A DNA stretch of 64,000 bases, from sequence record MZ892903.1. One strand, given 5' to 3'. The notes under the pieces were generated by a model. It was given only the letters and a program-made list of their open reading frames with translations. It did no database searches and was not told where the DNA came from. A program made the translations under genes and the position numbers. Of the stretch, positions 43,486 to 45,110 are shown one piece after another. The stretch is from Escherichia phage ELT1. Numbering within the stretch: position 1 is the first letter of the stretch; every line of letters begins with the position of its first letter.

Positions 43486-43780
43486 CTTGCGGCAACCTTG
43501 TCGGGGTTCCACCTGCTAAGGCAAGTGTTTGTACGAAACGCCGGGATTCGAACCCGGTTATTAAGTAGTTGACGCTACTCAATATTTTTAAAAGGCCATA
43601 TCTCGACCATATCCGAACGTTCCGTCAAAAACGCTACTCGGCTTACGGCAAAGATATTTCCTCGAATCGATAATTCGGTGCGCCGTTTCTGCTGTGATAG
43701 TAAAGAATCAGAACACAGTAAAACTGTGGGAGAAACTATACTCCAGGGAACATCAGTCCGACGACTTACCGGTAGCGACC
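43486..43780 (-). ncRNA. candidate small stable RNAs (T4 species 1/2-like, tRNA-like T-arm present)
   Basis: No ORF on either strand; GGGTTCGAATCCCGG T-arm-like element; lies between a CDS and a terminator in the position of T4 rnaC/rnaD. Confidence 0.3.
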
Positions 43781-43787
43781 CGGTTTC

Positions 43788-44138
43788 TTAATATTCTTTT
43801 AAAGCATCAACCTGTTCACGACGTTTACGCCATAAATCAATTGCTTCATACGCGGATTCAGCATTTCGAATTAGCCGGCATTTATGTAAAGACTTATGAT
43901 TTTGATATTGTGTAGATAACGGAATTGTATCTAAAAGGTCTTTACGATCAAAATATTCGTAACCATCTAAACCAAATGAACGATTTTTGAGAAATTGCCA
44001 ATGACCATATTCGTTTTCGACATAAACATAATCTGCATGCTGATAAAGCAAATTAATTACACGTTCAGAAATAACAGTATCATTATGATTAAAATAGAAT
44101 GTTAAATCATGAACTACTAAATAAACATTACCTTTCAT
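43788..44138 (-). CDS. hypothetical protein (tRNA.1 position)
   Basis: Start at internal ATG 44138 with GAGGA SD, avoiding overlap with tRNA-Arg. Confidence 0.45.
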   Translation of the reverse strand: MKGNVYLVVHDLTFYFNHNDTVISERVINLLYQHADYVYVENEYGHWQFLKNRSFGLDGYEYFDRKDLLDTIPLSTQYQNHKSLHKCRLIRNAESAYEAIDLWRKRREQVDALKEY

Positions 44139-44156
44139 ATTTTCCTCACTTAAAGT

Positions 44157-44232
44157 TGGTGCCTCTAGAAAGATTTGAACTCTCACCATTAACCTTAGAA
44201 CGATTATATGCTATCCATTACACTATAGAGGC
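44157..44232 (-). tRNA. tRNA-Arg (anticodon UCU), CCA encoded
   Basis: Manual fold: acceptor GCCTCTA/TAGAGGC, anticodon loop GTTCTAA, T-loop GTTCAAATC. Confidence 0.75.
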
Positions 44233-44889
44233 AATTAAATTATTTACAATATCTTCTTTATAAACTTCAGCATAATGAAGTTCATATATTTCCCATCCTA
44301 ATGATTTTATAATATCATGGCGTTCTTTATAATAAGGGGCCAAAATCTTTTTCTTAGGATTGGAGTAATGTTGGTTTCCATTAACTTCAATAATAATCTT
44401 TTTATCTATTAAAGCAATATCCGCGCAATACGCTCGGTTTTTAACCGGTTGGTATTCTTCAATAAATGAAATTCCGTTTTCTATTAATTTAGATTTCAAA
44501 AATTCACAAGGCACAGATTTAAATTTTGTATTTTTCTTCCAAGGATGTTTATCGGGGTTTTCATTCAACCATTTTTTCCGAGCATTAGATATTTTTATTC
44601 TAGATTCCTCAGAGTGTTCTCTACCTAATGAAGCGGCTGACCATTTTTGTCTAGTCTCTTCCGAAATTACTACAGGAACACCAGTCTTTTTAGATACAAC
44701 ATACTGGTTTAAATTACCTGAAGCTATACGTGCTTTATTCATTGCTGCAATGGCTGATTTAGAACTTTCTTTATACAATTCCAATTTAGGGTTGGATTTA
44801 CACCATCTAGTGTGGTTAGCCATCCATCCTTTAGGTTTATTAGAAATATCAAATTCCATATTACAATGTTTACAAATTCTCATTACCAA
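44218..44889 (-). CDS. homing-endonuclease-like protein with Zn finger, NUMOD3 motif and C-terminal DUF559/Vsr-like nuclease domain (segB position)
   Basis: 223 aa; CKHC...HTRWC; SEETRQKWSAASLGREHSEESRIKIS; C-terminal YCADIALID...IIEVNG...GWEIYELHY. Confidence 0.55.
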   Translation of the reverse strand: MVMRICKHCNMEFDISNKPKGWMANHTRWCKSNPKLELYKESSKSAIAAMNKARIASGNLNQYVVSKKTGVPVVISEETRQKWSAASLGREHSEESRIKISNARKKWLNENPDKHPWKKNTKFKSVPCEFLKSKLIENGISFIEEYQPVKNRAYCADIALIDKKIIIEVNGNQHYSNPKKKILAPYYKERHDIIKSLGWEIYELHYAEVYKEDIVNNLIASIV

Positions 44890-44957
44890 TTATCTCCTAT
44901 AAAATATAGGAGTATTTATTATTTGGATAGAGCACTTAATTTACTTCGTTTAAATTA

Positions 44958-45029
44958 CTGGCGCACTTGGACTCGAACCAAGATAAAGGAGTTAACAGCT
45001 CCCCGTAATAACCTTTATACGATGCACCA
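44958..45029 (-). tRNA. tRNA-like gene, anticodon GUU (Asn) by manual fold
   Basis: T-arm CTTGG-TTCGAGT-CCAAG, anticodon loop CTGTTAA, acceptor TGGTGCA/TGCGCCA; no encoded CCA. Confidence 0.5.
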
Positions 45030-45035
45030 TTTGTT

Positions 45036-45110
45036 TGGTGACCCTGGCTGGTTTCGATCCAGCTACCTATCAGTTATGAGCTGACAGCTCTCCCATTGAG
45101 CTACAGGGCC
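45036..45110 (-). tRNA. tRNA-Ile/Met (anticodon CAU), CCA encoded
   Basis: Acceptor GGCCCTG/CAGGGTC, D-arm TAGCTCAATGGGAGAGC, anticodon loop CTCATAA. Confidence 0.75.

Follow-up and report, generated by a model that had tools for sequence, protein, structure and literature searches.

Positions 44,157 to 44,889 of a 64,000-nucleotide (nt) stretch of Escherichia phage ELT1 (MZ892903.1), referred to here at its full length as the window, carry an open reading frame (ORF) that ends inside a tRNA-Arg gene. We conclude that this ORF very probably encodes a free-standing homing endonuclease that combines a CCHC zinc finger, two NUMOD3-type helices and a Vsr/DUF559-type nuclease of the PD-(D/E)XK superfamily. 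It lies on the minus strand, as do the domains, tRNA genes and regulatory elements described below, and would be 223 amino acids long (44218..44889) if started at TTG 44889. The in-frame ATG 44883 (MRICKHC...), which is preceded by a GGAG box and gives a product of 221 amino acids (44218..44883, with the stop codon TAA at 44218-44220), is more likely to be the true start, and residue numbering follows it. Ratios of non-synonymous to synonymous substitution (dN/dS) of 0.09 against an orthologue of 82% identity and 0.07 against one of 78% identity, comparisons in which synonymous sites are near saturation, point to purifying selection and indicate that the ORF is a real gene. The hidden Markov model of the family matched this ORF alone among the 246 six-frame ORFs of the window, which led us to reject a paralogue or second copy elsewhere in it.

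ARAGORN called nine tRNA genes on the same strand, all of which were also matched by the Rfam tRNA model: Gln, Leu, Gly, Pro, Ser, Thr, Met and Asn (45609 to 44958) are followed by the ORF and then by Arg(tct). The last of these, here termed tRNA-Arg′(UCU) (44157..44232; Rfam 44160-44232, 56.3 bits over the full model), encodes its CCA end. The ORF ends GCC TCT ATA GTG TAA with its stop codon in the D-arm of tRNA-Arg′, so its last four sense codons and stop double as positions 1-15 of the tRNA (44218..44232). This 15-nt overlap had been noted in the preliminary description of the locus, which was made from the sequence, and ARAGORN, Rfam and codon reading confirmed it exactly. An identical 15-nt overlap occurs in phages Mizar and PSD2001 and in Klebsiella phage Shark_ER15, and a 24-nt overlap in Klebsiella phage phi1_146055.

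The predicted architecture of the protein is that of a modular DNA-binding nuclease. Residues 1-30 (44794..44883) would form the CCHC finger, which presumably binds DNA: C4, C7, H24 and C28 are kept in 63/64, 63/64, 57/77 and 58/79 of the homologues that have the respective position, the AlphaFold2 model places a β-hairpin and a helix (residues 20-27) in this region, and a few homologues match zf-C2H2 models of Pfam. Two NUMOD3-like helices (SEETRQKWSAA and HSEESRIKISNARKKW) follow at residues ~73-108 (44560..44667) and are modelled as helices 75-85 and 92-108. The first of these repeats was recognised by eye only; the Pfam NUMOD3 match of the window protein falls just under the cutoff (E 1.4e-3, 19.0 bits against 20.4), and 14 of 96 homologues match the model, with a best E of 6.6e-6. 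Residues ~109-221 (44221..44559) constitute the predicted Vsr/DUF559-type PD-(D/E)XK nuclease domain, assigned from its invariant residues and its modelled fold. W115, S123, K130, E143, D155, E166, N168, G169, H172 and Y173 are invariant in the alignment of the 96 homologues and E127 is nearly so (90/96, 94%); the window ORF has all the invariant family residues intact. The AlphaFold2 model built on this alignment (mean predicted local distance difference test score 90.5) gives the C-terminal catalytic domain a Vsr-like α/β nuclease fold, and the nearest solved structures by fold comparison are the DNA endonucleases 3R3P, 3HRL and Vsr. Structures 1CW0, 3HRL and 3R3P form one recognised group within the PD-(D/E)XK superfamily (DUF559/Vsr; Steczkiewicz 2012, PMC3424549). 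By its model, the protein belongs to the structural group of I-Bth0305I, a homing endonuclease of the EDxHD family. Order and spacing make E127, D155, N168, H172 and D190 candidate counterparts of the I-Bth0305I residues E170, D196, N208, H213 and D222, and the spacing of E143, D155, E166, N168 and H172 also resembles that of the latter series (PMC3239194).

The Pfam matches of the protein were weak. Pfam DUF559 (PF04480) scored 21.8 bits against a gathering cutoff of 20.6, over profile positions 43-96 of 109, and 36 of the 96 homologues matched it at E ≤ 0.01; there was also a weak Pfam match to MTES_1575. The Vsr model (PF03852) was unmatched by the window protein at E ≤ 10 and was not among the 25 Pfam families most often matched by the 96 homologues at E ≤ 0.01. 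A search of 5.8 billion proteins returned 133 homologues, many of them common only over the C-terminal ~60%. The family is modular, with a constant C-terminal region of ~130 amino acids and exchanged N-terminal DNA-binding modules (zinc finger, NUMOD3 or helix-turn-helix).

We also asked whether the ORF could be a SegB orthologue with an unrecognised GIY-YIG domain. The window protein had no Pfam match to GIY-YIG even at E ≤ 10, and BLASTP against the SegB that occupies the same slot in another Tequatrovirus gave E 2.2 over 8 residues. As a control, that SegB and a second SegB did match GIY-YIG (E 4e-7 for the SegB of the neighbouring phage). The SegB candidate was therefore ruled out, and neither a full-length alignment to SegB nor a standard GIY-YIG domain was found. 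The preliminary description had proposed as much, in that it saw no obvious GIY-YIG protein here and instead a Cys/His finger, a NUMOD3-like repeat and a C-terminal DUF559/Vsr-like nuclease; Pfam, residue conservation, the AlphaFold2 model and the fold comparison uphold this composition.

The DNA around the ORF bears the marks of mobility. Over 45109-44146, a block that comprises tRNA-Met′, tRNA-Asn, the promoter and hairpin described below, the ORF and tRNA-Arg′, the window is identical to phage Mizar at 959 of 964 positions (99.5%). In the flanks, identity (per 100 columns) drops to 60-81% with Mizar but reaches 93-100% with the endonuclease-free Tequatrovirus ESCO58. The limits of the whole block (44150..45110) were drawn from the alignment with these two phages and from junction searches. 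Such identity between otherwise divergent phages implies recent transfer, and a sharply bounded transfer that includes flanking markers is the signature of co-conversion. The co-transferred tRNA-Asn(GUU) (44958..45029; ARAGORN and Rfam) is identical to that of Mizar, and tRNA-Met′(CAU) (45036..45110; ARAGORN) is a cassette allele with the left recombination junction at its 5′ end. This left junction is spanned by no record in the phage collection and is unique to the window; the right junction is spanned by F2/Mizar-type phages only, at 92%. In tRNA-Arg the window reads GCCTCTATAGTGTAATGG..., ESCO58 and SegB-bearing relatives read GGGGCATAGCTCAG... and T4 reads GTCCCGCTGGTGTAATGG..., which indicates that the tRNA-Arg overlapped by the ORF is a divergent allele travelling with the ORF and not the resident one. 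In other Tequatroviruses the same slot holds SegB or extra tRNAs (Tyr, Asn, His).

An independent case of replacement was found in Klebsiella Jiaodavirus. Comparison of Shark_ER15 with KPV15 and Roth01 showed that [tRNA-Arg, tRNA-Leu] is replaced by [tRNA-Leu′, promoter/hairpin, ORF, tRNA-Arg′] between flanks that are 100% identical; the order of the tRNA genes is inverted and both are different alleles. In Mosigvirus DCP548 (PQ671645.1, locus L008, ~2152-2227) a hybrid tRNA-Arg follows the endonuclease ORF, with 5′ two-thirds from the cassette allele and a 3′ acceptor strand (CTGTCTCGACCA) of the resident T4/ESCO58 type. Its acceptor stem cannot pair, ARAGORN makes no call and the tRNA fold is lost, and the hybrid looks like the scar of a crossover inside the tRNA-Arg gene.

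The distribution of the gene is sporadic. It is encoded in 32 of 50,697 phage records searched by tblastn, 11 of them from Escherichia phages, and the surrounding 2-kb tRNA region matches 835 phage records, mostly Tequatrovirus; in the Klebsiella phage group the gene is present in 6 of 175 records. A locus that is otherwise conserved but holds the gene in only some close relatives is what is seen for free-standing homing endonuclease genes of T4-type phages. Protein identity to the window copy is 98% in nine E. coli phages, 82% in a Gaprivervirus and 78% in a Mosigvirus, falling to 60-63% in T4-like phages of Klebsiella, Enterobacter and Providencia, 51% in Acinetobacter and 29% in Rhizobium phages. 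The tblastn search of phage genomes returned solely homologues in tRNA clusters. An exhaustive profile search found 563 cluster representatives at E ≤ 1e-30 and 2,328 at E ≤ 1e-3. A bacterial chromosomal origin was rejected: among 185,579 species genomes there were 11 loci only, all on contigs of metagenome-assembled genomes and 9 of them in phage-like tRNA clusters. The family is large, essentially viral and almost unannotated.

Several deposited copies are unannotated or altered. An intact 221-amino-acid ORF is present with no coding-sequence annotation in NC_054913 (F2), PP658200 (HY126), OR352941 (AV111) and OK254198 (PSD2001), as is an intact 218-amino-acid ORF in the Klebsiella record MW239157 (vB_KpnM_17-11). 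In these unannotated records the tblastn match covers tRNA-Arg alone or no annotated feature at all; other records label the product a 'hypothetical protein' or an 'HNH endonuclease'. The overlap with the tRNA may be the reason for the missing annotation. In PQ306573.1 (Escherichia phage vB_EcoM_PTE-Eco05, 25959-26622) the alignment of the gene is split in two and the annotation lists two hypothetical proteins, which suggests a frameshifted, decaying copy.

The family as a whole is tied to tRNA genes, especially tRNA-Arg. A scan of IMG/VR gave 65 loci with relatives, 58 of them distinct. A tRNA gene lay within 3 kb in 55 of the 58 distinct loci and within 500 bp of the match in 51 of the 65. 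The nearest tRNA was Arg in 26 loci, including 17 with Arg(tct), against 10.6 expected when the nearest tRNA is drawn at random from each locus's own tRNAs; none of 100,000 simulations reached 26. In the phage records of GenBank, the gene is followed directly by an overlapping tRNA-Arg(tct) in Tequatrovirus, Gaprivervirus and two Klebsiella groups, and tRNA-Arg(tct) directly precedes it in Providencia and Rhizobium phages; Acinetobacter phages depart from this pattern. ORFs that run into the 5′ end of a same-strand tRNA with their stop in its D-arm were found in five metagenomic loci (L032, L043, L055, L063 and L070), with L032 also showing a 15-nt overlap with Arg-tct; judging from these sequences, the arrangement arose independently in several lineages. 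Two further ORFs (L019 and L026) read through a whole antisense tRNA-Arg(tct), which may reflect a genuine lengthening of the C-terminus or result from errors of ORF extension or assembly; both were left out of the evidence.

Upstream of the ORF, the window has a counterpart of the control region of T4 endonuclease genes. A predicted 8-bp RNA hairpin, CUCCUAUA-UUU-UAUAGGAG (44894..44912), would sequester the Shine–Dalgarno sequence GGAG, and an equivalent hairpin hiding this element is present in seven further phages from 5-6 genera. Immediately 5′ of the hairpin stands a candidate late-promoter box, AATAAATA (44913..44920), which matches T4 TATAAATA at 7 of 8 positions and is common to the window and Mizar. 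A perfect TATAAATA is found at the equivalent site, directly 5′ of the hairpin, in six homologous loci of other genera, from PSD2001, DCP548, two Klebsiella phages, a Providencia phage and an Acinetobacter phage. The exact octamer is absent upstream of the window ORF, and its 11 copies across the whole window equal the chance expectation; the late-promoter argument therefore rests on the homologues. Late transcripts that start inside a hairpin sequestering the ribosome-binding site (RBS) are documented for I-TevI, I-TevII, I-TevIII, segB and Aeh1 mobE (PMC2988022). With a late promoter, here matched at 7/8, and an RBS hairpin both represented, we infer that the control design of T4 endonuclease genes is in use here.

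This regulatory reading is confined to local elements. The 88-nt upstream region as a whole folds no better than shuffled sequences (z −1.3), so the claim is limited to the 8-bp hairpin, and a generic sigma-70 promoter scan, which gave 10 sites against 10.0 expected, is uninformative for a T4-type phage. Owing to the mismatch in its box the window copy may be poorly expressed, and F2/Mizar-type copies in general may be expressed more weakly. Comparison of the upstream regions of the window (44894-44960) and of loci L002, L007, L008 and L010 showed a sequence block, GTGCTCT(A/G)T(C/T)CAA, right before the late-promoter box, which is kept between E. coli and Klebsiella copies whose proteins are only 63% identical and might serve as an operator or belong to the end of the element.

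We propose the following sequence of events. Read-through transcripts of the tRNA operon in which the gene sits would conceal its RBS in the hairpin, and transcripts from the late promoter would begin inside the hairpin and so be translatable. In a mixed infection, the enzyme would attack the tRNA region of a relative without the gene, most likely cutting in or adjoining the resident tRNA-Arg(UCU) gene. Repair from the endonuclease-carrying genome would then copy the ORF together with its flanking tRNA alleles and displace the resident tRNAs. Joined to the 3′ end of the ORF, the divergent tRNA-Arg′ would restore the displaced tRNA-Arg function and presumably lacks the cleavage site. We give roughly even chances to a target in or adjoining the resident tRNA-Arg(UCU) gene of endonuclease-free phages; what points there is the family-wide Arg bias, the removal of a GGGGCATAGCTCAG-type tRNA-Arg in both independent replacements and the DCP548 hybrid. 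Because the ORF overlaps the tRNA, RNase P cleavage at tRNA position +1 would strip the last four sense codons and the stop from the endonuclease mRNA, and it is a matter of speculation that the overlap may thereby limit endonuclease expression.

Several observations count against a homing endonuclease that targets tRNA-Arg. Nuclease activity, cleavage site and homing are putative for every member of the family. The residue equivalences with I-Bth0305I were set by spacing and not by residue-level superposition, and D190, the fifth proposed catalytic residue, is kept in 63 of 95 homologues (66%). Neither phmmer nor the 96-sequence HMMER profile found 3R3P (I-Bth0305I) among PDB sequences at E ≤ 10, so the link of the nuclease domain to I-Bth0305I and Vsr is drawn from fold comparison only; the matches that the PDB sequence searches did return, an archaeal N-glycosylase at E 0.3 and C2H2 fingers at E 2.4, were discarded as noise. 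The best single Pfam E-value belongs to RAP (PF08373; E 4e-5, with 80 of 96 homologues matching at E ≤ 0.01), a domain tied to RNA-binding proteins. We treat this match as reflecting a common Vsr-like fold and not as RAP membership. The late-promoter box of the window carries its one mismatch. As to the target, 29 of the 55 loci have a tRNA other than Arg nearest to them, and no tRNA-Arg lies within 2.5 kb to either side of the Acinetobacter homologue. Adjacency alone cannot identify a target because phage tRNA clusters attract mobile nucleases in general, SegB among them.

A nuclease of homing-endonuclease origin might be retained for other work, cutting the tRNA array for segmental amplification or exchange of tRNA and anti-defence genes, or excluding competitors, with self-propagation not its main role. 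SegB, which is statistically linked to tRNAs, promotes the amplification of tRNA-Tyr and anti-defence loci (PMC13096335); the family described here is linked to tRNA clusters even more tightly than SegB and is under purifying selection, and the block always brings a working replacement tRNA set. We nevertheless consider this account unlikely. The gene is rare in close relatives (11 Escherichia records against 835 matches to the region, and 6/175 in the Klebsiella group) and one copy is frameshifted, so that a selfish cycle of gain and loss fits better than a retained beneficial function; such work would, moreover, be compatible with homing, as SegB does both.

The RAP match could also be read at face value, with the protein an RNA-binding or RNA-cleaving factor of the RAP/FASTK type whose substrate would be the polycistronic tRNA precursor instead of DNA; it might, for instance, help to process or stabilise tRNA-Arg. 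That match reaches 23.9 bits and stays under the Pfam cutoff of 24.2, the nearest solved structures are DNA endonucleases (3R3P, 3HRL and Vsr), and the N-terminal zinc-finger, NUMOD3 and helix-turn-helix modules are DNA-binding types typical of homing endonucleases. Hundreds of close relatives have the same tRNA sets without the gene, and the block is mobile at the DNA level, all of which makes an RNA factor very improbable. We give least credence of all to a decaying, inactive remnant that hitch-hikes with the tRNA block, an idea to which the imperfect late-promoter box of the window and Mizar copies, the frameshift in one related copy and the lack of annotation of the ORF in several database records would lend themselves. 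The window ORF is intact with every invariant family residue kept, its dN/dS is 0.07-0.09 against orthologues near synonymous saturation, and the 99.5% identity of the block between divergent phages implies a recent transfer.

Several known systems come close to the free-standing homing endonuclease that we favour. EDxHD (Vsr-like) homing endonucleases include I-Bth0305I of Bacillus phage 0305phi8-36 and Hef of the T4-related phage U5 (Dassa 2009, PMC2677866; Taylor 2011, PMC3239194), and some of them have tandem NUMOD3 motifs and upstream hairpins (PMC2677866, PMC3239194). The window protein shares the domain order described for these enzymes, including an N-terminal NUMOD-type region (with NUMOD3 below the cutoff and matched by 14/96 homologues). 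It differs in its DUF559/RAP-like core motif, D..E-V-N-G-N-Q-H-Y, in an added CCHC zinc finger and in the absence of a sequence match to I-Bth0305I with the 96-sequence profile; the niche of its family is the tRNA cluster and not recA, nrd or intein loci, and its ORF ends inside a tRNA gene. Relative to the DUF559/Vsr group (PF04480, PF03852) it is distinguished by being phage-borne, by its added DNA-binding modules and by having no Vsr Pfam match, and nothing suggests a role in T:G mismatch repair. I-Ssp6803I, an intron-encoded tetramer with no separate DNA-binding modules, was not among the top structural matches of the window protein. It is nonetheless comparable as a homing endonuclease of the restriction (PD-(D/E)XK) fold with a tRNA gene as its target, the cyanobacterial tRNA-fMet gene with its group I intron (PMC2677866).

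By analogy, SegB of T4 offers the direct precedent for homing into the T4 tRNA region: it cuts within tRNA genes, prefers T2L tRNA-Asn and replaces ~1.25 kb with Met, Tyr, Asn and Arg genes (PMC2330249). The two genes share the slot between the first tRNA subcluster and tRNA-Arg, a length of 221 amino acids, a NUMOD3 motif, and a late promoter with an RBS hairpin. Both move with neighbouring tRNA genes, SegB replacing the Met/Tyr/Asn/Arg region of the recipient, and both are statistically associated with tRNAs. Their catalytic domains, however, are unrelated and their domain order is reversed, GIY-YIG being N-terminal in SegB. Whereas SegB recognises a generic T-psi-C motif without isotype bias, the window family is biased to tRNA-Arg, and the SegB ORF has no overlap with tRNA-Arg. 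We note that two positions in the T-loop of the tRNA-Arg′ of the cassette (AGTTCAAATCT) deviate from GGTTCRANTCC, the core motif of SegB (PMC2330249), and that the cassette tRNA-Asn retains a perfect GGTTCGAGTCC relative to the SegB recognition motif.

The preliminary description had placed the ORF in the segB position, and it does lie where relatives carry SegB. Its suggestion of a different homing-endonuclease lineage at the tRNA-cluster insertion site is backed by the sporadic distribution, the sharply bounded mosaic block and the T4-style regulation. Its term 'atypical' holds in that the protein is not a GIY-YIG enzyme; since EDxHD (Vsr-like) is already a named family, with Hef in T4-related phages, the nuclease type is less atypical than that term implied. 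The divergent tRNA-Arg′ allele, the presence of tRNA-Met′ and tRNA-Asn in the block and the family-wide tie to tRNA genes go beyond that description.

Downstream of tRNA-Arg′, an ORF on the minus strand at 43788-44189 has its mechanical start, ATG 44189, inside the tRNA gene. Its true start is likely to be ATG 44138 (MKGNVYLVVHD...), preceded by GAGGAAAA, which agrees with a 345-351-nt hypothetical gene annotated after tRNA-Arg in related phages. Directly after this ORF, at ~43670-43788 (minus strand), GAAACCGGGTCGCTACCGGTAAGTCGTCGG matches the start of T4 rnaD (species 2 stable RNA), and no Rfam family covered this sequence. In T4, rnaD adjoins tRNA-Arg directly, whereas in the window a protein-coding ORF intervenes.

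Vsr-like homing endonucleases, including one in T4-related phages, the swapping of endonuclease families at one locus and the presence of an endonuclease in the T4 tRNA cluster were already known. The literature that we searched on DUF559/Vsr-like endonucleases, phages and tRNA did not describe the present arrangement, which is an absence of evidence in that literature only. Within it, the DUF559/RAP-like subfamily with a CCHC finger, its tRNA-Arg-biased linkage, the recurrent overlap of ORF and tRNA and the cassette of endonuclease plus replacement tRNA are apparently new. More tentatively, and with rather less than even confidence, we propose a large family of homing endonucleases of the Vsr/DUF559 type (~560 clusters at E ≤ 1e-30) that is restricted to phages and specialised on tRNA genes, above all tRNA-Arg(UCU), and of which this ORF would be the first member to be recognised. 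Such endonucleases would cut the resident tRNA gene and spread as cassettes of an endonuclease and replacement tRNAs, in which fusion of the ORF to a cleavage-resistant isoacceptor keeps decoding capacity and RNase P makes each transcript either a tRNA or a translatable message, a limiter of nuclease dose that would have arisen repeatedly.

A second, unrelated nuclease lineage occupies the SegB slot of T-even phages, which implies that different selfish nucleases have converged on phage tRNA arrays. Re-annotation is a practical use of this result, since many deposited genomes omit the ORF or call it 'hypothetical' or 'HNH', and the overlap of ORF and tRNA provides a simple system in which to study RNase P processing against translation termination. 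Beyond these genomes stands a large and essentially unannotated metagenomic family with a testable preference for tRNA-Arg. Phage tRNA sets counter host defences that cleave tRNAs. The strongly mosaic make-up of phage tRNA clusters would be easier to understand given an element that exchanges entire tRNA alleles between phages.

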